Both the position numbers and the translations under genes were made by a program. From sequence record PP627281.1: a stretch of 57,280 bases of DNA, one strand, 5' to 3'. The DNA is from Escherichia phage KS_W4. The notes under the pieces were generated by a model, which searched no databases, was not told the origin of the DNA, and worked only from the letters and a program-made list of their open reading frames with translations. Every line of letters starts with the position of its first letter. Position 1 is the first letter of the stretch. Shown here one piece after another: positions 13 to 57,280 of this stretch.

Positions 13-570
13 ATGAACGGGGCAAGTCAAGAGCAATATGATCGTGACTGGACGAACTATATCCAGTATGCAAATAGCTTGTCCGCTGACGAGATGGCAA
101 TACGTGACAAAGTTGTTGCTGAGTATATGTTCGACTACAATTGGACTAACGCTTGCATGAGATGCGGGTTCAATGCTATGTTTGCACAGGAGCTTGGCCA
201 ACGCTTTGCCACGGACTGTTACGTTCGATGGAAGCTCAAGGAGATTGAAAGATCCCGTGTTCAACGTACTTCTGAGCAAGCTAACATTGAAGCAGACCTA
301 GAGCGTCAGCATATCATTGAAGCATTAAAACGTGAAGCTCATTATACAGGACCGGGATCTTCTCAAGCTGCTAGAGTAGCCGCATTGGGCAAGCTTGCAC
401 AAATTTATGATTTGGATGCTCCCAAGAAGGCTAAAATTGATGTTACTAACAGAGGCGGCGTAATGATAGTCCCTGCTGTAGCAAATATTGACGAATGGGA
501 AAAAACTGCATCCGAGTCTCAACAACGACTAGTTAAAGAGACTGAAGATGGAGCTAAACCGACAACCTGA
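13..570 (+). CDS. putative terminase small subunit
   Basis: 185-aa ORF with RBS-like AGGGGAG upstream; directly precedes and overlaps the large terminase gene. Positional call only, no motif verified. Confidence 0.4.
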   Translation: MNGASQEQYDRDWTNYIQYANSLSADEMAIRDKVVAEYMFDYNWTNACMRCGFNAMFAQELGQRFATDCYVRWKLKEIERSRVQRTSEQANIEADLERQHIIEALKREAHYTGPGSSQAARVAALGKLAQIYDLDAPKKAKIDVTNRGGVMIVPAVANIDEWEKTASESQQRLVKETEDGAKPTT

Positions 571-2107
571 TAACATGCCGCGAGTAGTCTGGAAGCCACA
601 TCCAGGTTCACAGACACTCGCTCTATCCTGTCCTGCTGATATCATTTTATACCACGGTACTCGCGGTCCTGGAAAGACGGACTGCCAGCTTATGCGTTTC
701 CGTAAGAATGTTGGCGTAGGGTACGGTAAATTCTGGAAGGGTATTATATTCGATCGTGAATATAAAAACCTTGATGACCTTGTAACCAAATCACAGCGTT
801 GGTTCCCTGAATTTAAAGATGGTGCTAAATTCCTTAGCTCGAAGTCTGATTATAAATGGGTTTGGCCCACTGGGGAAGAATTGCTGTTCCGTGTTGCTTG
901 CAAAGAAAAGGATTATTGGTCTTATCATGGTCACGAATACCCGTTTATCGGATGGAACGAATTAACAAAGTATCCGGACGGGCGTTTGTTTGAAGCAATG
1001 ATGTCCTGTAACCGTTCATCCTTCCTACCCGAAGATAATCCAATTATCAATCCGGACGGTACTGTCACATATTTACCAGACATTCCTCTGGAAGTATTTG
1101 CTACCAGTAACCCGTTTGGTGCGGGGCATAACTGGGTTAAGAAACGCTTCATTGATGCTGCACCGATGGGTAAGATACTCAGGAAAACTACGCGAGTGTT
1201 TAACCCGCGGACGCAGAAAGAGGAAGATGTGGTTACGACGCAATGCCATATCTTCGGATCTTATCGTGAGAACAAAAACCTGAGCCCGAAATATATTGCA
1301 GAGCTTATGTCCATCACAGACCCGAACAAACGAGCTGCATGGTTAGGCGGTAGCTGGGATATCACCTCCGGCGGTATGTTCGATGATCTGTGGCGTAGCA
1401 CTGTTCATAAAATACGCCCATTCCCAATCCCATCAAGCTGGAAGATTACACGTTCTTTCGACTGGGGTTCTTCAAAACCATTCTCTGTTGGCTGGTGGGC
1501 TATTAGTGACGGTTCGGATGTTGTACGTGAGGACGGTACTACATTCTCTACTGTACGCGGTGACTTGTTCCGTATTAACGAATGGTACGGCACTAACGGT
1601 AAAACAAACGAAGGCCTACATTTGCTGGACTCAGAGATTGCAAGCGGTATACTGGAGCGGGAATTGGCCTGGGGTATACACGACCGTGTAGTTCCTGGAC
1701 CTGCGGATAATTCTATTTGGGATCTGGAGAACAATAACTCCACCGCTGCAACAATGGCGAAGAAAATCCGTCTCAACGGCAAGCTGTATAACGGCATCCA
1801 TTGGAAGAGAAGTGATAAATCTGCTGGGTCGCGTAAACGCGGATGGCAGAAAATGCGTGAGTTTCTTAAAGCCGCGTTGCGGGAAGATACAAACGGTAAA
1901 CCTTTGCCGGGACCACGTGAAAATCCAGCAATGTATGTTTTCGATAATTGCAATTATTTCTTTGAACTTGTTCCAAGTCTTCCTCGTGATGAAGTAGATC
2001 AGGACGACGTTGATACGGAATGTGAAGACCATATGGGCGATGAAGTACGTTATATGGTTCTGGATCAAGCTGTTTATACAGGTGTCGGTAAAACTATCGG
2101 TATTTAA
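548..2107 (+). CDS. terminase large subunit
   Basis: 519-aa ORF; N-terminal Walker A-like GTRGPGKTD; size and position upstream of portal gene. Alternative ATG at 575. Confidence 0.8.
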   Translation: MELNRQPDNMPRVVWKPHPGSQTLALSCPADIILYHGTRGPGKTDCQLMRFRKNVGVGYGKFWKGIIFDREYKNLDDLVTKSQRWFPEFKDGAKFLSSKSDYKWVWPTGEELLFRVACKEKDYWSYHGHEYPFIGWNELTKYPDGRLFEAMMSCNRSSFLPEDNPIINPDGTVTYLPDIPLEVFATSNPFGAGHNWVKKRFIDAAPMGKILRKTTRVFNPRTQKEEDVVTTQCHIFGSYRENKNLSPKYIAELMSITDPNKRAAWLGGSWDITSGGMFDDLWRSTVHKIRPFPIPSSWKITRSFDWGSSKPFSVGWWAISDGSDVVREDGTTFSTVRGDLFRINEWYGTNGKTNEGLHLLDSEIASGILERELAWGIHDRVVPGPADNSIWDLENNNSTAATMAKKIRLNGKLYNGIHWKRSDKSAGSRKRGWQKMREFLKAALREDTNGKPLPGPRENPAMYVFDNCNYFFELVPSLPRDEVDQDDVDTECEDHMGDEVRYMVLDQAVYTGVGKTIGI

Positions 2108-46734: not shown

Positions 46735-47008
46735 AAATCTGTTTCCTCCGCCATTCTTCATATGCTGAATTATTTGCATCATATACTTCGCAAGCGTCTT
46801 TCATGCTGTCATACAGTCCAAGGAACGTTCGCCTTGTTTCCCCGCTTGCATCTACCCATGTTAATCGGGCGAGCCATTTACCCGTTTTGTAATCGAAAGT
46901 AACGCCCTCACGCCCGCTCACATTCTCCCGAGGCACTCGCGGTTTCCGGCGTGCAAGCCCGCGCCCTTTGAAGTTGCTCCCCGGCACCGTGCGACACTTA
47001 CGACCCAT
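46721..47008 (-). CDS. AP2-like DNA-binding domain protein (putative)
   Basis: about 95 aa from ATG 47008 (AGGAG RBS); basic N-terminus; GVTFDYKTGKWLARL...LGLYDS..A...Y pattern resembling AP2 domains. Confidence 0.4.
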   Translation of the reverse strand: MGRKCRTVPGSNFKGRGLARRKPRVPRENVSGREGVTFDYKTGKWLARLTWVDASGETRRTFLGLYDSMKDACEVYDANNSAYEEWRRKQIYGYN

Positions 47009-47198
47009 AAACCGCTCCTGCATACTGCTTTAAGACAGGCTCTGCAACTTCGCGCACGTAAACGTACACGTTAGCAATTTTAACTTCGCCCGGCAGCTTA
47101 CCGCGTAGCGAACACAACTTGCGACGGCTAAGACCGAAGCGCTTCTCAATTTCTGATGTGGTTATGTATTTAAGATCAAATTCTTTTTGATGGTTCAT
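46998..47198 (-). CDS. putative HTH DNA-binding protein
   Basis: 66-aa ORF with GGAGG RBS; ITTSEIEKRFGLSRRKL resembles a helix-turn-helix; first gene downstream of the repeat-rich non-coding region. Confidence 0.45.
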   Translation of the reverse strand: MNHQKEFDLKYITTSEIEKRFGLSRRKLCSLRGKLPGEVKIANVYVYVREVAEPVLKQYAGAVYGS

Positions 47199-47357
47199 AC
47201 CTACCTCCTAACAGCACTATACACAATCCATAGTAATGCAGCCACAATTATTCCACATGAAGTTATGATGTGAGAGGATTGTTAATATATAACCACATGT
47301 GATGGAAAGTTTTGGGTAGGAATAGTTGGTGCTCCACAGTTTGCGCAATGTGACCGA

Positions 47358-47394
47358 AAGTTTTGTGAGTTTTGCAAAGTTTTGCGAAGTTTTG
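47358..47394. repeat. tandem iteron-like repeats (RAGTTTTG x4, about 10-bp period)
   Basis: Copies begin at 47358, 47367, 47377 and 47387; additional copies at 47307 and about 47445; inverted copy CAAAACT near 47796. Confidence 0.7.
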
Positions 47395-47585
47395 TGGTGC
47401 CACTGTTGCTAAAAACTTTAATAAAAACAATAAGTTGGTGCAGTAAGTTTTTGCGTTTTGGGGTAAAACGCATTTTTTACCCTAACACCCAAATCCCGAC
47501 TGTTAGTAAAAAACGTATATAAATCAATAGCATAGATACTAAATGAATAGTGAATGGAATGGGTAGAAATCCAAATGATGGAAGT

Positions 47586-47600
47586 GGAATAAATTATTCC
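47586..47600. repeat. palindromic operator-like site GGAATAA-A-TTATTCC
   Basis: 15-bp near-perfect palindrome; surrounded by several TGGAAT(A) repeats between 47550 and 47630. Confidence 0.55.
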
Positions 47601-47866
47601 TACTTGATAGAATAATGGAATCGGTACTCCAGAGCGCAAAAACCTAAAACTTTCAGTCAACAGACTAAAAACGGATAGAAACTAAAAGTTAATAAGTAAT
47701 ACCATAAATATATATAAAATAAGGATTTATTAGTAATGTATATAGTACCTATTGGTATTATTTGAATGTTTTTGGGTCATTGTTAAAAAGTCCCAAAACT
47801 CACAAAAAGTGAAAGAATACAAATCGTGACAGGATTGTTAATGGAATATGGTGTATGGATATACAG

Positions 47867-47913
47867 TATTATTCCAGATTCCGGAATAATTGGAATAATG
47901 GAATAAATTATTG
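47867..47913. repeat. second cluster of GGAATAAT/ATTATTCC palindromic sites
   Basis: ATTATTCC (47868-47875) and GGAATAAT (47883-47890) are inverted; followed by GGAATAATGGAATAAATTATTG. Confidence 0.55.
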
Positions 47914-48026
47914 AACTATTGTGATCGGAAGGTATATCAAGCTATAATGCGCTTAATCGCGGGATATTGGAGGAGGACTTTATTGCGCGGTTAACCGGAC
48001 CAGTAGGAGGGCTGGCCCGGAGTAGT

Positions 48027-48353
48027 TTAAAGCTGTACAGGTATGAAGTGGGCTAGCGTATCGTCGGACATAATACCCGACAGTTTTTCGCTTACCCAGT
48101 CGGACCAAATGCTATCCGGTTCCTGGCGATGCACAAACCAGATTTCGGATGTGCCTTCTTTGCGCATCGGTTGCACTTCTGCAAGGAACTTGTCCTGCAT
48201 AAGACGGGTGAAGCATACGCTGGTCATTGGAACCGGCTTTTCGTCTTTATTGTAATAAGGGATTAATATTTTATTTCCGAAGTCGGCAACTTCATAAACT
48301 GTTCCTTTTCGCAAGCCTTGGATGTCAGTGTAAGAGCGAATGAACTTTTTCAT
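48027..48353 (-). CDS. hypothetical protein
   Basis: 108-aa ORF. Confidence 0.4.
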   Translation of the reverse strand: MKKFIRSYTDIQGLRKGTVYEVADFGNKILIPYYNKDEKPVPMTSVCFTRLMQDKFLAEVQPMRKEGTSEIWFVHRQEPDSIWSDWVSEKLSGIMSDDTLAHFIPVQL

Positions 48354-48355
48354 AT

Positions 48356-48532
48356 TTATTTCCTTACGAACACAGAGCCGACGAATAACGTTGATTGAGT
48401 AGCAGCTTGCTCGATTAATTCTCCAACAAGCTGGGACTGGTTTAGAGGTTTAAGGCCTTCTTTGGCGCGTGCTTCATTTACACGACGTTGAAGGTCTTTT
48501 AAGTATTGAGTTGCAAAGCTATCTAATTGCAT
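48356..48532 (-). CDS. hypothetical small protein
   Basis: 58-aa ORF (MQLDSFATQYLKDLQRR...) found by manual translation; stop lies 3 nt before the downstream gene start; below the ORF-track cutoff. Confidence 0.35.
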   Translation of the reverse strand: MQLDSFATQYLKDLQRRVNEARAKEGLKPLNQSQLVGELIEQAATQSTLFVGSVFVRK

Positions 48533-48587
48533 TTTCTTATCCTTAGGGCTCCCGCAGAAGCCCGTTAGTGAACAGTGTGGTTATAGA

Positions 48588-49202
48588 TTATGCGTCCAGT
48601 CCGTTGTATTTGCGCCAGGCGTAGAACTGAATGGCTACCGTTGTCCCGTTGTAAGAAGGCATTGCAGCTTTCATCTCTTTCAGCTCCGGCGTGCGGCCCA
48701 GTTCGGCCAAAAGTTTGTCGCCCATTGCCCACACTTCGGCAGTTTTTCCTTTCAGGGGCTTGCGAGCGCCATTTTTGAAATCACAGCGAGCAGCTTTTAC
48801 ATCCTGTTTTGGCGCGGCAGCTTTTGGCTCTTCAATTTTGATTTCAGAAACCTGCGTGGCAGCTTTTGCGTGTTTCATATCTTTCTCTTCCTCCTGCTCC
48901 AGAGCTTCGAGGCAGCTTTTGACGATTTCCGGATTTACCATCGGGCGCAGTACCGAGGCGCTAGCAGCTGGCGCGGCGGTCGGTGCCGGGACTTTCTGCT
49001 CCGGCTTTTGAGCTTTTTCGTGCTCGCGCAGCACCTGAAGGACTTCCTTTTCAACAATGTAAAAACCAATATCGTCCTGATGGATTAACTGTTCATGTGC
49101 GTCGCGTGCAACCTGACCCCAGCGAGTTTTCAGAGCGCGGCGTGCATTCGTTTTCATGGTGTAGCGCATTTTGTCCTGTTCGCGGTGAGTTACTTTAGAC
49201 AT
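48588..49202 (-). CDS. hypothetical protein, paralog of the 32302-33114 product (shared C-terminal domain)
   Basis: about 204 aa from ATG 49202 (AAAGGAG RBS); C-terminus VWAMGDKLLAELG...TVAIQFYAWRKYNG aligns with the C-terminus of the A/K-rich protein. Confidence 0.5.
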   Translation of the reverse strand: MSKVTHREQDKMRYTMKTNARRALKTRWGQVARDAHEQLIHQDDIGFYIVEKEVLQVLREHEKAQKPEQKVPAPTAAPAASASVLRPMVNPEIVKSCLEALEQEEEKDMKHAKAATQVSEIKIEEPKAAAPKQDVKAARCDFKNGARKPLKGKTAEVWAMGDKLLAELGRTPELKEMKAAMPSYNGTTVAIQFYAWRKYNGLDA

Positions 49203-49232
49203 GGTATAGCTCCTTTCGTTAAAGTTAGTTTG

Positions 49233-49262
49233 CTTATTATTGCCCACCGTGATAGTAGGCAA
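49233..49262 (-). promoter_or_regulatory. putative minus-strand promoter (TTGCCT ... GGGCAATAATAAG)
   Basis: Minus-strand TTGCCTA-N14-GGGCAATAATAAG just upstream of the gene starting at 49202; same motif repeated at 49553-49585. Confidence 0.35.
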
Positions 49263-49275
49263 TGTATAAGAAAAC

Positions 49276-49524
49276 TTACTGGACGATAGCAACGAAATCC
49301 GCGTTTGCGATGTCCATGCTTGCGAAAGCAACGATGCTATAGTCTGTGTCGTTTTCGGCGTTAAACGCTTTGAGGAACTGCTGTACCGCTGCTTTATGGT
49401 TAAGCGTTACGTCGATAGCATAGTCCCAGCTATAGACTTTGCGCTTGCCAAAACCTTTAACTGCAATGCGTGCGCCTTTGGTGTTAGTTGGTGCCAAAAA
49501 TTTAGTGATGATAGAAGTAGCCAT
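49276..49524 (-). CDS. hypothetical protein
   Basis: 82-aa ORF with GAGGA RBS downstream of a promoter-like motif. Confidence 0.45.
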   Translation of the reverse strand: MATSIITKFLAPTNTKGARIAVKGFGKRKVYSWDYAIDVTLNHKAAVQQFLKAFNAENDTDYSIVAFASMDIANADFVAIVQ

Positions 49525-49552
49525 GATGTAATCCTCGTTTTGTTTAAGTTGA

Positions 49553-49585
49553 CTTATTATTGCCCAGTCAGATCAACTAGGCAAG
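49553..49585 (-). promoter_or_regulatory. putative minus-strand promoter (TTGCCT-N17-AATAAT)
   Basis: Minus-strand TTGCCTAGTTGATCTGACTGGGCAATAATAAG upstream of the gene starting at 49524. Confidence 0.4.
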
Positions 49586-49591
49586 ATATAA

Positions 49592-49755
49592 ATCAACTAT
49601 TTTCGCTCACATAATCCAGTGCAGCTTCGAGGAAATAAAATTCTTCCTGCTTATATAAGCTGATTGCCCACTCCAGCTGAGCGCGAGTAAGGTGGCGGTA
49701 TTTGTTGTCGATGCTATAGCTGCGACCGAAGTAAATGATATTGAAGTAGTTGAAC
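49592..49755 (-). CDS. hypothetical small protein
   Basis: 53-aa ORF (MFNYFNIIYFGRSYSIDNKYRHL...) with GGAGG RBS, found by manual translation; first gene of the minus early block. Confidence 0.35.
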
Positions 49756-50073
49756 ATAACGCGCCTCCAAGTGTGGTTAAGAAGTAGTACCGTGTTGCTA
49801 TGGGTACATAATAGCGATGCATTGTGATATTGAATAGGCCAAACGTGCTATTTTGATCTTGTTTTGCATCTAGTGAAAATTATGCTTGCCCTGCATGTTT
49901 AGCACTAATGGCCTAACTAACATCACACGATCTTGTCTACGCGCGTGCATACATACATATAAGGAGCGCCGGACCGGATCGGACCGACCAGGGACACACA
50001 ACCGTCCCTATCTGCCCTGTAAACTGGTCCACGGACCGGTCCAAAATATTTTTATAAAAGATGCAAAAAGGTG

Positions 50074-50102
50074 TAGACATATGATCAATCTAACCCTACT
50101 AT
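50074..50102 (+). promoter_or_regulatory. putative sigma70-type rightward promoter (TAGACA-N17-TACTAT)
   Basis: Hexamers with 17-bp spacing about 50 bp upstream of the first plus-strand early gene (50152). Confidence 0.4.
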
Positions 50103-50151
50103 ATACACATACCGCAAGGGTACTACAAATTAACTTAAAGGGGTTTACATC

Positions 50152-50355
50152 ATGTCTATTCGTAACGTTATCTGTGTAATGGTTGCAAACAATAATTTTG
50201 GTTTCGTAGAAGGTGCAGAGTATAAAATGGATCTTAAGACTCGTTGCATTATTAAAGGTGAAGAGGAATGGCGTGCAGTGGTAGAAGATCGCGGCGATAT
50301 CTACATCTATAGTTCTGATACAATGAAAACTATTGCCGTCTTCGAATTTAACTAA
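50152..50355 (+). CDS. hypothetical early protein
   Basis: 67-aa ORF with AAAGGGG RBS. Confidence 0.45.
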   Translation: MSIRNVICVMVANNNFGFVEGAEYKMDLKTRCIIKGEEEWRAVVEDRGDIYIYSSDTMKTIAVFEFN

Positions 50356-50423
50356 GCTAACTTATACAATGGGCATTAGTACAGTGCCCATTAATAAGCT
50401 AACTAATTATAACGAGGTGTATT

Positions 50424-50609
50424 ATGTCTACGAACACTGTGAAGTCTGTAAATAATAGCAACAGAACATTTAAAGTTATGTACTATGGCGAATATATCGG
50501 AGACGTTACAGCTCCCAGCCGCATCGCTGCGGAAGACTTCGTCCGCGCAGAGATGCAACTTGGAATTGCCGATTTTGCAGCCATTATCGAACTGGTAGAG
50601 GTGTACTAA
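50424..50609 (+). CDS. hypothetical early protein
   Basis: 61-aa ORF with GAGGTG RBS. Confidence 0.45.
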   Translation: MSTNTVKSVNNSNRTFKVMYYGEYIGDVTAPSRIAAEDFVRAEMQLGIADFAAIIELVEVY

Positions 50610-50610
50610 T

Positions 50611-50754
50611 ATGTCACGTAAATACACGCTTACACGCGCACAGCACGCGCTATTATTGCAGGTTATGCGCATGGAGTACGAAGAGACTACATGGGCGCAG
50701 GCCATGCAGACAGGGCGCGAGTTCTACGCGCAACTAATAGCACAAAATGCCTAG
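50611..50754 (+). CDS. hypothetical small protein
   Basis: 47-aa ORF coupled to the upstream stop (TAATATG); manual translation. Confidence 0.3.
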   Translation: MSRKYTLTRAQHALLLQVMRMEYEETTWAQAMQTGREFYAQLIAQNA

Positions 50755-51052
50755 ACAACATGATCGGTCTGGTGGATACTACACACATCAACCAAACAAC
50801 GGGGTAAACAAAATGCGTAGTTTCAAATGTGTAAGCGTAAACGATAATGCTAAGGCTAGTGCAAAGGGTCTGTTCACAGTAGGTAATGTGTATGACTTCA
50901 ACATGGAAAGTTATATACACATGACCCTCACGGGCGTAATGTTCGGCGACGTTGGTGCGGTGCGCTGCGAATTAAACAAGTACACGGAAAAGGAATATGC
51001 TCTTATCAGCCGCTACACGGGCGAGCCGTTAGCTGTGTTCCATGCAGCTTAA
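50747..51052 (+). CDS. hypothetical protein
   Basis: 101-aa ORF; alternative ATG at 50813. Confidence 0.35.
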   Translation: MPRQHDRSGGYYTHQPNNGVNKMRSFKCVSVNDNAKASAKGLFTVGNVYDFNMESYIHMTLTGVMFGDVGAVRCELNKYTEKEYALISRYTGEPLAVFHAA

Positions 51053-51485
51053 GCTATAACGCACACAGCGCCACGCTAGCGAGCTAATGCACAAAGGCAA
51101 TGGTAATGCATTAGCTCGGGCGAAACAGGCGCACAGCGTCGCGCACAGCTCACACAGCTCACACAGACCCACGCAGGCCCAGCCGCGCGACCCCACCCAT
51201 CCTTTTCCAGGTACTTGGAGCGCCGGGGCGTGCCCGTCCATCCTGATAGTAAGTGCTTGTCTAAATCTCACCCATCACATAGCCTATCCACCTACATCCA
51301 TGACCCCACCTACCTTCTTTTTGAATATATTGCGCTCATCCTTTCTAAATATATGGATTTTGGTAGTAAATTCTGAGTCGTCAACGTATAATTCGTCTTG
51401 TAGCTGCTCCATAGCTACCATCTTTAAGCGGATGCAACCAATTTCTATCAATTCTTACCAGTTTTACAGCATCAAGGAGGTATTT

Positions 51486-51713
51486 ATGTGCGACTCCAGT
51501 GCAAGCGCTACACCCAGCACCTCCAGCAATGTGGTTACAGAGGTAAATGCAATGCGATTAGGTCCATATCGCGGCTATTATGGTCGTGCTGCATGGAATG
51601 ACGCTACTCAACGTTTTGAAGGCTGGATTATCTGCCCGGAACGTGTTAAATTTCACTCCGTAAAGAGAAAAATATCGTTCTTAATTTTCAAAAATGTGTC
51701 ACTAAATATGTAG
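51486..51713 (+). CDS. hypothetical protein
   Basis: 75 aa from ATG 51486 with strong RBS AAGGAGG; the longer tracked ORF (51087-) runs through a non-coding-looking region and was trimmed. Confidence 0.45.
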   Translation: MCDSSASATPSTSSNVVTEVNAMRLGPYRGYYGRAAWNDATQRFEGWIICPERVKFHSVKRKISFLIFKNVSLNM

Positions 51714-51726
51714 AGGAGCAAGAAGA

Positions 51727-52017
51727 ATGCGTGTAGAAGAGATTGTTGAAGGTAAAGAGTATCGTCTGCTGACTGACATTGGTGGTGTTGGGTATACTCC
51801 GGATGATGCAGCTTGTTTTAACGTCCTTCCGCAAGGTGCTATCGTGACAGTTAACAAGGTCGTTACCGATTTATACAGCGTTCATGACGGCAGATGGCCA
51901 CATGCAGTTATTGTCACCTTCGGTAAAGATGGATATGTGGATCTTGACGGCGAAGATGACGCTTACGAAGTTGCTTATACAGGTCTTGTAAGCCCCAATT
52001 TCCTGGAAGAAGTATAA
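51727..52017 (+). CDS. hypothetical protein
   Basis: 96-aa ORF with GAGGAG RBS; followed by a GGGCTC-TACG-GAGCCC hairpin. Confidence 0.45.
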   Translation: MRVEEIVEGKEYRLLTDIGGVGYTPDDAACFNVLPQGAIVTVNKVVTDLYSVHDGRWPHAVIVTFGKDGYVDLDGEDDAYEVAYTGLVSPNFLEEV

Positions 52018-52068
52018 TTATCAATCTATAATGGGCTCTACGGAGCCCTTAATTATCTGGAGATTGTT

Positions 52069-52374
52069 ATGCTGTATTTAGGAATGGATTTAAATCGAGA
52101 AAAACCGGATATCCCTGCGGTCGATTCTAAAACTGCAATCAAAGTCCTGTTTTTCGATCAGGAAATCCCTGTAGAGCCGGACGCTACTCACATAGCGGTA
52201 GATGCTAATGGTGTTGTTCATTGCTACTGGGCAAAACCTATCAGGTATAAACGCGGTAACGAATGGCTTATGGGTCATGGTAATATACGTGTTCGCTACT
52301 GCGGCGAAGTTGACCTTGAAGGTATGGACTGGCGCGATACGTTGAAGGAGATTACTACATATGTCCACAGCTGA
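52069..52374 (+). CDS. hypothetical protein (VDLEGxDW family)
   Basis: 101 aa; C-terminal GEVDLEGMDWRDTLKEI matches the ORF at 31271-31525. Confidence 0.5.
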   Translation: MLYLGMDLNREKPDIPAVDSKTAIKVLFFDQEIPVEPDATHIAVDANGVVHCYWAKPIRYKRGNEWLMGHGNIRVRYCGEVDLEGMDWRDTLKEITTYVHS

Positions 52375-52450
52375 AGTTACCACATTCATAATAGCTTTTG
52401 CGGTTGCTTTATTTCTTCTAGCTAAGTTAGATTTATTTATTGGGTAACTT

Positions 52451-52675
52451 ATGCGACTACTTATGGTTCTTGGTGTTATGATTGCCGCTTTCGTTGTATT
52501 TGCAATTGTGGACTCCAAAGAAATGGAGCGGCAAAACTGCCAGCGTACTGGTAACAGCCGGGAGGATATTATTTGGCAATATATTTACGATGCAAAAGGT
52601 AATGTTATGTCAATGTATCCTCAGGTTATTACTGAGTATGAATATAAATGTGATGACCGTAACAGGTGGAGATAA
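52451..52675 (+). CDS. hypothetical membrane-anchored protein
   Basis: 74 aa; N-terminal hydrophobic helix. Confidence 0.4.
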   Translation: MRLLMVLGVMIAAFVVFAIVDSKEMERQNCQRTGNSREDIIWQYIYDAKGNVMSMYPQVITEYEYKCDDRNRWR

Positions 52676-52677
52676 TA

Positions 52678-53157
52678 ATGGAAGTTACTGAAGCTGCTAA
52701 ACGCATGGTGAAATTCTATGTTGGTTCTGATTCACCTTTAATTCGCGCTTTTGGTCAGGAGCTTTATGTTTTCCAGGGTAATCGAGAGGAGGCTGAAGAG
52801 GTCGCTCAGAAGATTCTTGATTTACAAGAAAAAGCTAAACGGGCGGATGCCCTGGAAGCTGAATGGCGAGCTCAGGAAGAACGTGCCGAAAATGCTGAAA
52901 CTAACCTTGTCGACATGCGTGCTGCTGAACACGCTTTATCCGATTCTTATATTCGTTTGCGTCAAATTGTTGGTGCAATGAATCCGCCGGGTGTGACCAG
53001 CGAAGAGGTGTGGGCGCATACCGAGAAGAAGGCTCAAGAGTTGCGTGATCGCTGCGAAGCTCTGGAAGCTGTAGCAAAGGACTTCCTGCGTCGTAATAAA
53101 TATGGTCCTTTGTTCTATCGTGATTTGTATAATCGTTTTAAGGAGATTGTGGAATGA
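52678..53157 (+). CDS. hypothetical protein
   Basis: 159 aa from ATG 52678 (AGGTGGAG RBS); acidic and helical. Confidence 0.45.
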   Translation: MEVTEAAKRMVKFYVGSDSPLIRAFGQELYVFQGNREEAEEVAQKILDLQEKAKRADALEAEWRAQEERAENAETNLVDMRAAEHALSDSYIRLRQIVGAMNPPGVTSEEVWAHTEKKAQELRDRCEALEAVAKDFLRRNKYGPLFYRDLYNRFKEIVE

Positions 53158-53423
53158 TTACTGCTCAAGAAGCTCGTGAATTGAGTGATAAGCTGGATAT
53201 TAGCGAAGATATTGAATTTATCAGTGATAGCATTCGCGTAGCTGCTACAAAGGGGTACAATAAAGTATCACTTGTAACTAAATACGGGGCTGTTGGCAAT
53301 CCTGACACTCAAGACCCAACCACTATGAAGATTGCTAAATGGTTAGCAGATTCAGGTTTTACTGTCCTATACTATCCTTCAATGGACCAACGTGATAATG
53401 AGCGTACTGAGGTAGCATGGTGA
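53154..53423 (+). CDS. hypothetical protein
   Basis: 89-aa ORF with AAGGAG RBS. Confidence 0.45.
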   Translation: MITAQEARELSDKLDISEDIEFISDSIRVAATKGYNKVSLVTKYGAVGNPDTQDPTTMKIAKWLADSGFTVLYYPSMDQRDNERTEVAW

Positions 53424-53490
53424 TTGAAGAAAATATCAAGTATTGGAAAGGTTTTATTGACGAAATGCTCAAACCATTGGAGAAGAAATA

Positions 53491-53883
53491 ATGCTATTAG
53501 TCGTCACCGGAGGGCGTAATTTTAAACATGTAGAGTATATTTATGCTCAACTGGATAAGTTGCATACGCAAAGAAGGATAACCACACTTCGCCACGGTGA
53601 CGCTGACGGTGTTGACCGGATTTGCGCACATTGGGCAGAGCGCAACGGTATTAAGACAGAAGCGTTCCCTGCCCCGTGGGACAATCTTTCCTTACCAAAT
53701 ACCAAGATACGGTATAACGCCAAGGGTGCTTATAATGCACAAGCTGGTGCTTACCGCAATCAATTAATGCTGGATACTGATCCTAAACCAGATCACGCTA
53801 TTGTGTTTCCTGGCGGAGCTGGTACTATGGACATGTACAGACGGATTAAAGCATCCGGTATTCCTTACACATTAGCGGAGTAA
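53491..53883 (+). CDS. SLOG/LOG-like Rossmann-fold protein (putative)
   Basis: 130 aa; VVTGGR, GDADGVD and VFPGGAGTMDM motifs resemble the LOG/SLOG superfamily. Confidence 0.35.
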   Translation: MLLVVTGGRNFKHVEYIYAQLDKLHTQRRITTLRHGDADGVDRICAHWAERNGIKTEAFPAPWDNLSLPNTKIRYNAKGAYNAQAGAYRNQLMLDTDPKPDHAIVFPGGAGTMDMYRRIKASGIPYTLAE

Positions 53884-53886
53884 ATA

Positions 53887-54357
53887 ATGGCTGACGTTAA
53901 AACTATTGTTGATGCAATGGACGAATCCAAAGACTGCCAACTGAAGAAGTCGTTTGAAGTAAAACAGGTTACAGAGACTCAGTTAATAGCAAGATTCGCA
54001 CGTCATTGCGGCTTGGGGCGCGGGAAAGACTGGAACGGGCTTATTGTTATGCCTACATCACAGATCCTTGTCTATGTCCGTAATGTTGTAGAAGATGTTC
54101 TGCGTCTTCAGGTTGAAATCGGTGATGTAGAAATTAACATGACCGCGAGCTCTACTATTGTGGTTAAATGGCAGTCGGGCGAGACACTTCGTTTGGAAGC
54201 GTGTCATTGTGCTAAGAGCTTGCACCACCTGCGCGGTTGTCACTACCAGTTTGTTGGCTTTGTGCATCTACAAGGGTTAAGCGGGCGTACGGCGATGGTA
54301 GCGCGTTTGCTGCTGCGTCCTTATAATAACGAGCCGGAAGTCATATACGAGGCATAA
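53887..54357 (+). CDS. hypothetical protein
   Basis: 156-aa ORF with GGAG RBS. Confidence 0.4.
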   Translation: MADVKTIVDAMDESKDCQLKKSFEVKQVTETQLIARFARHCGLGRGKDWNGLIVMPTSQILVYVRNVVEDVLRLQVEIGDVEINMTASSTIVVKWQSGETLRLEACHCAKSLHHLRGCHYQFVGFVHLQGLSGRTAMVARLLLRPYNNEPEVIYEA

Positions 54358-54358
54358 G

Positions 54359-54781
54359 ATGATTAAACATGTCAAACAGCCAACTTTAAATACATGCGTT
54401 TCTGCGTGTTTGGCAATGATCCTTAATAGACCTGTAGAAGAAGTAATTGCGGAATTTCATGATCGATATTACAACAACTGGGAAATAACAATTTCCGAAT
54501 ATTTAGTACAAAACAATGTTGACCACATCTGTTCTGTAGGCGGTGGGCGTGAGACTATATACATGGGTGGTTTGTTTTTGTGCACTGTCCCAAGTCTCAA
54601 TGTTCCTGGAGCACTGCATCAGGTTGTGATCGATACAACTAATCACAAGTTTATTGTACATGACCCAATTAAAGGTTGGGAAGGTAAAAAGTTCTACGTT
54701 GGCCCGGATCAAGATCCTGAACAGCCAGGAGCATTTATCATTCATACTTGGGTTAAAGACGTTGAGATTGTGCTTAATTAA
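54359..54781 (+). CDS. C39-like papain-fold cysteine peptidase (putative)
   Basis: 140 aa; QPTLNTCVSACLAMIL (Gln/Cys pair) and later LHQVVID (His) resemble the C39 peptidase catalytic arrangement. Confidence 0.4.
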   Translation: MIKHVKQPTLNTCVSACLAMILNRPVEEVIAEFHDRYYNNWEITISEYLVQNNVDHICSVGGGRETIYMGGLFLCTVPSLNVPGALHQVVIDTTNHKFIVHDPIKGWEGKKFYVGPDQDPEQPGAFIIHTWVKDVEIVLN

Positions 54782-54843
54782 AAACCTTGCTATCAGATAA
54801 CCCTTCATTGTATTGTGTACCCATCGAATAAGAGGGGTACACA

Positions 54844-55029
54844 ATGACCAAACTATACGCCGGATTGTTTTTATTTGCGACGTTAATGTTCGCTGGGCTT
54901 TATACCTATACAGTAGTCGAACAACCTTCCACGGTTATCCGAATCTTTGCAAGTACAGGGCTTTGTATCTGTCTTATTCTATTTGTTTTATGCATTGTTA
55001 TTATCCAAGACCAAAGGAAAATTAAATGA
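54844..55029 (+). CDS. small membrane protein (2 TM)
   Basis: 61 aa with two hydrophobic helices; RBS AGAGGGG. Confidence 0.4.
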   Translation: MTKLYAGLFLFATLMFAGLYTYTVVEQPSTVIRIFASTGLCICLILFVLCIVIIQDQRKIK

Positions 55030-55490
55030 CCACAATTGCGTTTGATGGAAAAGTATTAGCTGCGGACCGTGGAGTTATGCGCGGGGAAGCTGTGACTGCT
55101 TATAAGAAAGTTCATAGCGTAAATGGACATCGTGGACGGTTTTTACTGGGATTGTGCGGCCTTACAGCATTTACCGATCAGGTGTTGCGTTATTTTAATA
55201 GCGCGGAACCTGTTAAGTTCCCTGATATTAAACTTTACAGCAAAGATGACGATTACGGGCAAACTTGCGGTCTTGCGGTTACTCCGGAAGGTACTTGCCA
55301 TTTTATTTATAATGATGGTACTTTGAGCGAACCCATGCTGGATGGATGGGGATCTGAGGGTAGCGGTTGTGTGTTTGCTGCTGGCGCGTTAGCTGCTGGT
55401 GCAAGTGCGAGCGAAGCTATTGAGTTAGCAATTAAACACACCACATGCGCATTCCTGGGAGTTGATACAATATCATTTGAGGGTTTTTAA
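55026..55490 (+). CDS. HslV/proteasome-like Ntn-hydrolase (putative threonine peptidase)
   Basis: 154 aa beginning MTTIAFDGK (compare HslV MTTIVSV...); GLCGLTAF and GSEGSGCVFAAGALAAG segments align by eye with HslV GFAGGTADAF and GSGG regions. Confidence 0.4.
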   Translation: MTTIAFDGKVLAADRGVMRGEAVTAYKKVHSVNGHRGRFLLGLCGLTAFTDQVLRYFNSAEPVKFPDIKLYSKDDDYGQTCGLAVTPEGTCHFIYNDGTLSEPMLDGWGSEGSGCVFAAGALAAGASASEAIELAIKHTTCAFLGVDTISFEGF

Positions 55491-55751
55491 ATGACTACAT
55501 TCAGTCACCTGATCCCACCTGCTTATCACAGCAAGGTAGTTGACCACGGGACGCATGTTGTAATTGGTGGCGAAATCTTTATCACAGATAACGAGGAAAT
55601 CGCCATTGCAATTATTGACAGCACTCAGCATGACTTTATGGTTATCCTGCAACACGAACCCGATAACTTCACTTTTTACTCCAGCTACGGGGTCGATAAA
55701 GGTGGAAAAGGTCTTGTTAGCTGGTACATTAGCGAGTGGTTTGACGGGTAA
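55491..55751 (+). CDS. hypothetical protein
   Basis: 86-aa ORF with GAGGG RBS. Confidence 0.4.
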   Translation: MTTFSHLIPPAYHSKVVDHGTHVVIGGEIFITDNEEIAIAIIDSTQHDFMVILQHEPDNFTFYSSYGVDKGGKGLVSWYISEWFDG

Positions 55752-55833
55752 TCTCCTTAGATCAATTCTCCTTGCGCCGTATCAAGTTTCTCTGTTACCC
55801 TTCAGTGGTTCATGTCAAGCGGAGGAACTCGAT

Positions 55834-56271
55834 ATGGCGCTTCAACCTCGTGGTATTCGTAACAACAATCCAGGTAACATTCGCTGGGGTGATAATTGGC
55901 AGGGATTGGTCCCTGTTGATAAGCGGACCGACAAATCTTTTGCACAATTTACGCAACCGATCTACGGCATCCGCGCTCTGGCGAAAGTCCTGACCAACTA
56001 CACCAAACGTGAAGGCTTGCCCAATGTGGGTAAGAAAAACATCGACACTGTACGTGAAATTATCGCTCGCTGGGCCCCGCCTAACGAAAACGATACGGAA
56101 GCGTATATTCGTTCTGTTGCCAAAGCAATTGGTGTTGAACCTAACGATCCAATCAATGTCTTCGACAAGACGATAATGTCAGGTTTGGTAAAAGCAATCA
56201 TTCGTCATGAAAATGGCATGATGCCTTACACGGACGACGTAATCAACCGCGCTATTGCAATGGTAATTTAA
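55834..56271 (+). CDS. putative endolysin / cell-wall hydrolase (family not recognised)
   Basis: 145 aa from ATG 55834 (GGAGGA RBS); immediately upstream of the holin and spanins; motif GIRNNNPGNIRW; functional call is positional. Confidence 0.3.
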   Translation: MALQPRGIRNNNPGNIRWGDNWQGLVPVDKRTDKSFAQFTQPIYGIRALAKVLTNYTKREGLPNVGKKNIDTVREIIARWAPPNENDTEAYIRSVAKAIGVEPNDPINVFDKTIMSGLVKAIIRHENGMMPYTDDVINRAIAMVI

Positions 56272-56307
56272 CTGATGGGGCGTCAGCCCCTTTTTATTGG
56301 AGGGAAC

Positions 56308-56652
56308 ATGTTCAACTCATCAAACGAACATTGGGCAGTTCTAGCGGGGTTTGCTCTGATTTCCCTCATTGGGGGAGCTCTCGGTTACGTCATGCGTACA
56401 ATTGACGCTGGTAAGAAGGTACGGATAAGCATTGCATGTCTTGAAGGTTTATCCGCCGCGTTCTTCGGCGTTATAATGTACGCGATCTACAGGGAGTTTA
56501 ATATCAGCCTTTGGTTCGCTTTTGGCCTTGCTGGCCTATTCGCTTGGGCGGGTTCACGTGCTACGCTAAAAGCTCTAAAGTCGCTTCTAGCATCGCGGAC
56601 AGGGATCAAACTCGACTCAGAGGACTGCAAACATGAAAATGATTCTAAATAA
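56308..56652 (+). CDS. holin (class I-like, 3 TM)
   Basis: about 114 aa from ATG 56308 (GGAGGGA RBS); three hydrophobic segments and a charged C-terminus; directly precedes the spanins. Confidence 0.5.
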   Translation: MFNSSNEHWAVLAGFALISLIGGALGYVMRTIDAGKKVRISIACLEGLSAAFFGVIMYAIYREFNISLWFAFGLAGLFAWAGSRATLKALKSLLASRTGIKLDSEDCKHENDSK

Positions 56653-57109
56653 CTTCTTCAGCTTCATAAAAGCTAAGCCCCGTCTGTTTATCGAGTACCT
56701 GATGATCGGCGCGGTGGTGTTTTTATGCGGAGTGGCCGCTTACCTGTGGTCACAAAACGAGCTTAACAAATCAAATTTAAGCTTGGCTGAAGAACGTTTA
56801 ACCGTTGTGGAGAAGGACAATGCTAAGCTGAGCGAAGCTGTTGTATTTCTTGCTGCACAAAGGGAGAAAGATACGGACTCTTTCAAGAAACTAACTTCTG
56901 CAATTCAGGACGAACAACATAACCACAAGTTGCTTCAGGACAAGTTGCAGACACTGGAGAAAAGCAATGCTGACGTCAAAGCTTATCTTAACGAGCGTAT
57001 TCCTGATGATTTGCGCAGGTTGCTCGACGCAGACTCAACCTCCCCCAGCTCCACAGATAGTGAAGGTAAGACTACCCGCGCATCTACTGGTGGAATGTCG
57101 GGAAGTTGA
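56633..57109 (+). CDS. i-spanin (Rz-like)
   Basis: 158 aa; N-terminal TM helix followed by a coiled-coil periplasmic domain; overlaps the holin end and the o-spanin. Confidence 0.6.
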   Translation: MKMILNNFFSFIKAKPRLFIEYLMIGAVVFLCGVAAYLWSQNELNKSNLSLAEERLTVVEKDNAKLSEAVVFLAAQREKDTDSFKKLTSAIQDEQHNHKLLQDKLQTLEKSNADVKAYLNERIPDDLRRLLDADSTSPSSTDSEGKTTRASTGGMSGS

Positions 57110-57272
57110 GAAAATTCCTTTGGTTTACACAAGAGATATTATCCGACGTTTACAGGATACAGAAACTGCTCTGACTGAATGTAAGCTAAGGGTTAAGGAA
57201 ATCATACGCTATGAAGCTGAAAATGTTTCGCTTGATTTTGTAGGATCAAGCAATTATATTCAGCCTAAATAG
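56967..57272 (+). CDS. o-spanin (Rz1-like lipoprotein)
   Basis: 101 aa; signal peptide with lipobox ICAGC; Pro-rich segment TQTQPPPAPQ; starts inside the i-spanin gene in another frame and extends past it (overlapped architecture). Confidence 0.6.
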   Translation: MLTSKLILTSVFLMICAGCSTQTQPPPAPQIVKVRLPAHLLVECREVEKIPLVYTRDIIRRLQDTETALTECKLRVKEIIRYEAENVSLDFVGSSNYIQPK

Positions 57273-57280
57273 CAATAAGA

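Follow-up and report, generated by a model that had tools for sequence, protein, structure and literature searches.

SeAvs3 senses the large terminase of phages through the active-site residues, the bound adenosine triphosphate (ATP) and the native nuclease domain, and the ATPase surface to which its C-terminal sensor binds is the one that the Avs2 sensor also contacts (Evans et al., 2026, PMC13601566). Small phage proteins resembling the terminase ATPase, T4 vs.8 and Bas60 Ksap2, enter the sensor pocket and activate Avs2; the Walker motifs are intact in vs.8, and Ksap2 has a weak fold similarity (Evans et al., 2026). KpAvs2 binds and senses the large terminase (TerL) of the Seuratvirus phage Bas22/KurtStettler in vivo (Bechon et al., 2024, PMC11564622). 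Here we analysed a gene cluster at positions 53491-55490 of Escherichia phage KS_W4 (PP627281.1; the whole stretch of 57,280 nucleotides is called the window below). One gene of the cluster, designated u156, is a duplicated and catalytically dead copy of a segment of TerL, and we propose that its product acts against Avs3 as a decoy or a shield.

The closest genetic data come from phage DruSM1. Deletion of every open reading frame (ORF) of DruSM1 was attempted, and the mutants were exposed to the defence systems of the Gao library (Ojima et al., bioRxiv 10.1101/2024.04.14.589459). The DruSM1 ORFs were mapped by the deletion-primer and cloned-gene sequences in the supplementary tables of that study, and the proteins were compared by BLASTP. 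The DruSM1 cluster proteins are 87-100% identical to those of KS_W4. The four features on which the main comparison is based are the following.

548-2107, plus strand: TerL (Pfam Terminase_6N, E 5e-6)
674-964, plus strand: TerL segment of which u156 is a copy, residues 43-139, from just past the Walker A lysine through Walker B
53491-53883, plus strand: SLOG gene, 130 residues, YspA/YAcAr type
53887-54357, plus strand: u156, 156 residues, terminase-derived

The database matches of u156 are limited to one PHROG, phrog_25149, which has no annotated function, and nothing was found for it in Pfam, NCBIfam or PADLOC. The sequence beyond residue 28 (GLGRGKDWNGLIVMPT ... WQSGETLRLEAC ... YQFVGFVH) resembled the stretch following the P-loop of terminases, and u156 was therefore compared with the TerL of the same phage. 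According to BLASTP, residues 29-128 of u156 correspond to residues 44-139 of TerL (E 3e-6, 28% identity over 100 residues). The Smith-Waterman score of the pair is 75, against a mean of 30.4 +/- 4.3 and a maximum of 61 in 2000 shuffles (Gumbel p ~1e-6), and the next-best ORF of the window scored 43. When the u156 family profile was searched against the 274 window ORFs of at least 50 residues, TerL was the sole non-self match (E 7e-4; the next was 0.21). The alignment of the u156 family with 26 TerL sequences (56-78% identity) by hhalign gave a probability of 93% and an E value of 3.5e-7. In the reciprocal search, a hidden Markov model (HMM) of TerL residues 30-150 was run against all ORFs of 142 loci, and the true terminases were followed by the u156 orthologs (E 5e-8 to 5e-5). 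The sole other match in that range is a 48-residue ORF at the end of locus L002, located just past the small-terminase gene, which we take to be a TerL start broken off at the locus end. A tblastn search with u156 against 50,697 phage genomes returned its 34 orthologs plus one match, the N-terminus of the TerL of Pseudomonas phage Lucjan (E 6e-3).

Fifteen positions are identical between, and at least 90% conserved in, both the u156 and the TerL families. Lys43 of the TerL Walker A motif is aligned with Val28 of u156, Thr44 with Thr29, and Asn137/Glu138 of Walker B with Val126/His127. That is, u156 is homologous to the terminase ATPases, but the Walker A motif GxxxxGK[ST] and the acidic residues of Walker B are missing. 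Without the P-loop lysine and the Walker B acidic pair, the protein is predicted to be unable to hydrolyse ATP. Judging from these alignments, u156 is a duplicated, diverged and catalytically dead copy of a TerL ATPase-domain segment, residues ~43-139. The ratio of nonsynonymous to synonymous substitution (dN/dS) of u156 is 0.10-0.14, corresponding to purifying selection. A decaying pseudogene fragment was also considered and was ruled out by this selection and by the intact gene in 35 records (34 Seuratvirus-like genomes and one Salmonella phage). The AlphaFold2 model of u156 reached a predicted local distance difference test (pLDDT) score of 61 only; Foldseek with this model detected nothing in BFVD at E <= 0.001, with one local 'Terminase-like' match, and the family profile gave nothing significant against the PDB. 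A cluster of Cys and His residues is located at residues 106-127 (54202-54267), in the former Walker B region. Cys106, Cys108, His113, His114, Cys118 and His127 are invariant, and His107 and His119 are near-invariant. The cluster may be a metal site gained after the duplication.

The DruSM1 ortholog of u156 is ORF84 (92% identity, same gene order). Its deletion was obtained and caused the largest effect with AVAST type III, an efficiency of plating of 10^-4, together with an effect of 10^-2 with qatABCD; the gene was not clonable (Ojima et al., 10.1101/2024.04.14.589459). The deletion of ORF83 (the SLOG ortholog, 96%) was obtained and is sensitive to AVAST type III, and the cloned gene, named 'Anti-AVAST typeIII', complements it. 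ORF84 is listed as a 'hypothetical protein' in that study, and neither that study nor EVADES (bioRxiv 10.1101/2025.06.06.658234) mentions a relationship of ORF84 to the terminase. A preceding sequence-only reading of this interval had listed a SLOG-type protein, a C39-like peptidase, a peptide with two transmembrane segments and an HslV-like hydrolase. All four are present, whereas u156 was overlooked, and by the ortholog phenotypes this omitted gene is probably the strongest anti-defence determinant of the stretch. In DruSM1 (L003 5093-5299) and KurtStettler (L223 1293-1499), an extra gene of 68 residues (phrog_27185, ORF85) is located between u156 and the C39-like gene. Its deletion in DruSM1 was obtained and gave qatABCD sensitivity. 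In KS_W4 the stop codon of u156 runs into the start codon of the C39-like gene (TAAGATG, 54357/54359), so the ORF85 gene is missing.

The SLOG ORF contains the loop VFPGGAGTMDM and passed the Pfam family PF10686 (YspA/YAcAr SLOG, formerly DUF2493) with 64.3 bits against a cutoff of 28.2 (E 9e-18, residues 3-64), as the sequence-only reading had supposed. It matches phrog_289 (E 6e-23). No relative was detected in the PDB by sequence at E <= 1. In the LOG phosphoribohydrolases the motif is PGGxGTxxE, and the final Glu is catalytic. The phage protein has the glycine-rich PGGxGT loop and the Rossmann-like SLOG fold in common with these enzymes, whereas the catalytic Glu is replaced by Met (PGGAGTMDM), and it does not belong to the LOG enzymes by this measure. 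From these features, it is a small Rossmann protein predicted to bind nucleotides. With DruSM1 ORF83 it shares 96% identity over 130/130 residues, and the genes are syntenic. The anti-defence activity of this ortholog is already published: EVADES describes ORF83 as a LOG-like, probably adenosine monophosphate (AMP)-binding anti-defence protein, with LOG proteins as the closest structural neighbours and a predicted site composed of Arg89, Asn90, Thr112 and Asp114 (10.1101/2025.06.06.658234). All four residues are present in the KS_W4 protein. The prediction made by others is that the protein binds AMP or processes it.

Like vs.8 and Ksap2, u156 is small, stand-alone and related to the TerL ATPase. 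The STAND proteins that sense terminases interact with both of those proteins in one and the same sensor pocket (PMC13601566, PMC11564622). Walker A and B are kept in vs.8, and both vs.8 and Ksap2 activate Avs2, whereas u156 has lost both motifs, corresponds to ~100 residues and protects genetically against Avs3. From the homology and the ortholog genetics, we propose that u156 would present part of the terminase surface or beta-sheet read by Avs3, but would lack the ATP site and the nuclease domain, with which Avs3 is also in contact. As a decoy, u156 would occupy the Avs3 sensor, and productive tetramerisation would be prevented. Alternatively, as a shield, u156 would cap free terminase. The decoy is the most economical of these, because u156 is a dead fragment of the sensed protein, it stands beside a validated anti-Avs3 gene, and its deletion gave the strongest sensitisation in the screen. 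The SLOG protein may cooperate, for example through the supply or removal of the terminase-bound nucleotide that Avs3 recognises. Other small terminase-like phage proteins, such as vs.8 and Ksap2, could likewise be decoys, to whose detection some Avs2 alleles have since adapted. We regard this proposal, with u156 as a decoy of a pathogen-associated molecular pattern (or as a terminase cap), as tentative and somewhat on the improbable side.

The remaining features of the cluster and its surroundings are as follows.

54359-54781, plus strand: C39-like peptidase gene, 140 residues, phrog_4049
54811-54846, plus strand: predicted RNA hairpin, enclosing the Shine-Dalgarno sequence and start codon of TM61
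54844-55029, plus strand: TM61, 61 residues, two hydrophobic helices, phrog_22841
55026-55490, plus strand: PPH (HslV-like) gene, 154 residues, phrog_1040
55491-55751, plus strand: u86, 86 residues, phrog_23528, no assigned function
55834-56271, plus strand: endolysin, from the annotation of the Seurat, DruSM1 and CSP1C orthologs
56308-56652, plus strand: holin, from the annotation of the same orthologs; the spanins and the genome end follow

The C39-like protein shows the Gln oxyanion residue, the Cys nucleophile, His and Asp intact in the order of the C39 peptidases, with a papain-like fold, in agreement with what had been proposed for it. The Pfam threshold of PF03412 (Peptidase C39) was failed (13.7 bits against a cutoff of 22, residues 3-24 only), and single-sequence and family-profile searches of the PDB gave nothing significant. 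Its family, phrog_4049, is large and phage-specific and is annotated as 'unknown function'. Among 1.84 billion representative proteins, 932 clusters matched the family profile at E <= 0.001, nearly all of them stand-alone proteins of ~140 residues. Compared with the C39 domains of PCAT1, ComA and LahT, the phage protein is stand-alone, with 140 residues and no ABC transporter. Neither the scan of neighbouring genes nor their annotation showed an ABC transporter. The 91 non-overlapping ORFs of the phage were also searched with a loose motif for a double-glycine leader, and the matches were confined to Rossmann loops and membrane segments. In the literature, we found no C39-like phage protease described as an anti-defence protein. 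In lambdoid-type contigs the gene is located among the genes of replication protein O, a DnaC-like or P-like loader, NinB, NinG and Ant, and in phages of ~157-160 kb (L007-L011, L058) it lies precisely between the genes of the large and medium DNA topoisomerase II subunits. The C39-like allele was compared with those of Seurat, DruSM1 and slur01 (L001, L003, L006), and the synonymous substitutions per site (dS) were 0.72-0.87 with 85-87% protein identity. The cluster neighbours gave dS values of 0.02-0.44 in the same comparison, and PPH was 100% identical. The divergence of the C39-like gene is far above that of its neighbours, which suggests replacement of the allele by recombination.

The HslV-like ORF begins with MTTIAFDGK. 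In 18 homologs, no variation was seen at Met1, Thr2, Asp14, Gly45 and a G-x-G motif, and Lys27, the equivalent of Lys33, is near-invariant. The family profile detected 151 HslV/proteasome-beta chains in the PDB (best E 3.2e-8), which bears out the Ntn-hydrolase assignment of the sequence-only reading; a single-sequence search of the PDB gave nothing significant. The protein matches phrog_1040 (E 5e-32). It is homologous to HslV and has the N-terminal Thr nucleophile with the equivalents of Asp17, Lys33 and Gly47. A bona fide HslV was rejected: the protein has 154 residues against ~175, and when it is aligned to HslV by HMMER, ~13 residues are missing where helix H2 is taken to be. No HslU-like gene was present among the adjacent genes examined. 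The PPH family was described bioinformatically as group I homologs of ~140 residues lacking helix H2 (Fuchs et al., 2021, PMC8665760), and that description reported no conserved context among viral genes. The KS_W4 protein was matched to this family by description: it is phage-encoded, belongs to group I with a length near the ~140 residues (~140-154 for the group I proteasome/HslV homologs compared here), has the Thr1/Asp17/Lys33/Gly47 equivalents and no propeptide, and has putatively lost H2. The DruSM1 ortholog is dispensable. The relatives of PPH (loci L065-L142) are mostly located in packaging, head and connector modules, among the genes of the small terminase (TerS), TerL, portal, scaffold, head-tail adaptor Ad1 and Neck1; two TerL-type clusters of neighbours occur at 20 and 13 of 80 PPH loci. 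This placement hints at a morphogenetic or quality-control role. We know of no PPH with a known substrate or quaternary structure. According to their sequences, both the C39-like peptidase and PPH look like catalytically competent, stand-alone accessory proteases, and nothing ties either of them mechanistically to the SLOG/u156 pair or to defence.

TM61 has two hydrophobic segments in its 61 residues (Kyte-Doolittle 19-residue maximum 2.96; phrog_22841, E 6e-45), as the proposed two-transmembrane peptide should. The hairpin at 54811-54846 has a free energy of -20.1 kcal/mol, with z -3.2 against shuffles, and spans the Shine-Dalgarno sequence and AUG of TM61. The C39-like gene and TM61 are separated by 62 nucleotides, and 54786-54860 is identical in six relatives except for one base; this gap is near-invariant despite the dS of 0.72-0.87 of the flanking C39-like gene. 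With this near-identity in the six relatives, the region offers no covariation to test for the hairpin. A weak promoter-like motif, TTGCTA-18-TATTGT, precedes the hairpin.

In DruSM1, deletion mutants were obtained neither for ORF86 (the C39-like ortholog, 87%) nor for ORF87 (TM61, 98%), whereas the deletion of ORF88 (PPH, 100%) was obtained with no altered defence listed (Ojima et al., 10.1101/2024.04.14.589459). The failure for ORF86 and ORF87 may be due to an essential function, to host-specific essentiality, which is the authors' own remark, or to technical failure.

The PP627281.1 stretch is a complete genome of a Seuratvirus (Queuovirinae). According to the ORF listing and the GC skew, the genes of the small and large terminases start at 13 and 548, and the spanins come last. 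Megablast with the region 53000-56300 matched 34 phage records, and 32 of them cover at least 80% of the query. The closest is Aeromonas phage SD04 (98.2% identity), followed by Cronobacter phage CSP1 and its derivative CSP1C (97.1%) and then by Escherichia Seuratvirus phages (Seurat, CAjan, several BASEL phages and DruSM1; 92-95%). In the four genes of the sequence-only reading and u156, dN/dS is 0.00-0.15 in most comparisons, with 0.30 in one TM61 pair. Since they are kept in 34 phage records with low dN/dS, the ORFs of the cluster are real genes and not chance ORFs. They form two tightly coupled runs, SLOG-u156-C39 and TM61-PPH-u86. The junctions are, in order, TAA-ATA-ATG, TAAGATG, the 62-nucleotide gap, ATGA (the TM61 stop overlaps the PPH start) and TAAATG (the u86 start abuts the PPH stop). 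The region had been called early, a label that nothing computed here supports; it is the distal part of a rightward block, which begins at ~49.5 kb, contains many small ORFs and ends in the lysis genes, and scans for sigma-70 consensus promoters and intrinsic terminators gave scores no better than shuffles. No Rfam family was found in 47000-57280, and PADLOC models matched none of the six cluster proteins. In NCBIfam, the five main proteins had no match, and the 86-residue protein had a negligible one (13.7 bits, cutoff 850). Between the endolysin and the holin, a GC-rich hairpin with a T run (GGGGCGTCAGCCCC TTTTT) is located at 56272-56290, and it is an annotated terminator in phage Seurat; the expression of the holin and spanins may thus need read-through or a separate start. 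A longer holin ORF from 56275 is probably unused, with the true start at 56308. The CSP1C record (GenBank PQ202980) carries the names 'DprA', 'cysteine protease' and 'HslV', apparently displaced by one gene: 'DprA' is on the 156-residue gene, 'cysteine protease' on the 61-residue gene, 'HslV' on the 86-residue gene and 'endolysin' on the holin.

The linkage of the genes was examined in viral contigs outside Seuratvirus, in which the C39-like gene served as the anchor of 56 loci (+/-10 kb) and PPH as that of 78 (+/-8 kb), and all ORFs were profile-searched. PPH was near the C39-like gene at 7 of the 56 loci, 3.7-5.6 kb away in six of them, and SLOG at 1. Around PPH, the C39-like gene was found at none of the 78 loci and SLOG at 1. 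All three were present at a single locus, a Queuovirinae-type contig of 61,437 bp that we take as Pantoea phage Vid5, in the order C39-SLOG-PPH. The arrangement of KS_W4 is present in 32/34 matching records, nearly all of the Seuratvirus type, and each family is widespread in phages, so that the content described as not standard for a siphophage was overstated. Because the families are unlinked elsewhere and stand in unrelated contexts, and the C39-like gene has a distinct history, the cluster is not a conserved module but a mosaic, whose accessory genes move independently of each other.

In the sequence-only reading, the SLOG protein, the C39-like peptidase, the membrane peptide and the HslV-like protein formed one takeover or anti-defence module, in which the proteases would destroy host defence proteins and the SLOG protein would process nucleotide signals. 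The packed, co-oriented genes with overlapping junctions would fit such a module, and so would the adjacency of C39, SLOG and PPH in Vid5, although in a different order; yet co-occurrence is near zero outside Seuratvirus and Vid5, and the families occupy unrelated contexts in other phages. Both proteases have full catalytic sets and the SLOG ortholog is a validated anti-defence protein, but the DruSM1 PPH deletion is viable without a listed change on any tested defence system, the allele history of the C39-like gene differs (dS 0.72-0.87 against 0.02-0.44), and the six proteins have no PADLOC match. The anti-defence role is supported for the SLOG protein (ORF83, AVAST type III, published) but not for the proteases, and the 'undescribed functional system' of two peptidases and SLOG is not supported (co-occurrence 7/56, 1/56, 0/78, 1/78). 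A single module is very improbable in our judgement. Another explanation is that the peptidases and TM61 serve morphogenesis or lysis, with the C39-like protein and TM61 in a late step and PPH as a non-essential morphogenetic or quality-control protease. The genes lie directly 5' of the endolysin, holin and spanins, whereas elsewhere the C39-like gene is mostly in replication or nin regions and not in late regions. Its deletion and that of TM61 were not obtained, as for the holin and structural genes, although this may be a technical failure. The relatives of PPH stand among TerS, TerL, portal, scaffold and adaptor genes, and no recognisable prohead protease was found among the first head-module proteins scanned, but PPH is dispensable, and a double-glycine-type leader was found in no protein of this phage. 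We consider such a role quite unlikely.

The homology of u156 to the TerL ATPase core could also belong to a packaging regulator, which would bind TerL, TerS or the portal and tune motor assembly, the Avs3 phenotype being secondary, for example because the sensor would meet more free terminase or terminase made at the wrong time. That the gene is not clonable in E. coli is compatible with toxicity or action on core machinery, and the ORF84 deletion also shifts the sensitivity to QatABCD by 10^-2; but the mutant was obtained, so u156 is dispensable for plaques without a defence system, it adjoins another anti-Avs3 gene, and it is confined to the 34 Seuratvirus-like genomes and one Salmonella phage while the TerL clade is much wider. 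A packaging regulator seems unlikely to us. Several points weigh against our own reading, in which the cluster is an accessory mosaic, SLOG and u156 act against Avs3 with u156 as a decoy or shield, and the peptidases are unconnected. ORF84 was not clonable and hence never complemented, and its phenotype could be indirect or polar. The 'AVAST type III' of the Gao library is presumed throughout to be the terminase-sensing SeAvs3. KpAvs2 still defends against Seuratvirus phages carrying u156, so that a decoy effect, if there is one, does not extend to terminase sensors in general. The failed deletions of the C39-like gene and TM61 may mean a core role that the reading leaves unexplained, and the adjacency of C39, SLOG and PPH in Vid5 hints at some linkage within the Queuovirinae. 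With these points considered, we give the reading as a whole an even chance of being correct.

The other components of the cluster are ordinary, each being one more member of a known phage family, and the result that they do not form one system prevents a false lead. Avs and NLR-like sensors are thought to be hard to escape, as their targets, such as the terminase, are conserved and essential. If the proposal for u156 is true, the phage would keep an immutable essential protein and yet hide its terminase from a pattern-recognition receptor. It would represent a simple and general route of evasion, in which the recognised domain is duplicated, its activity is killed, and the copy is expressed separately. 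It would also explain the small terminase-like proteins that recur in Avs studies.

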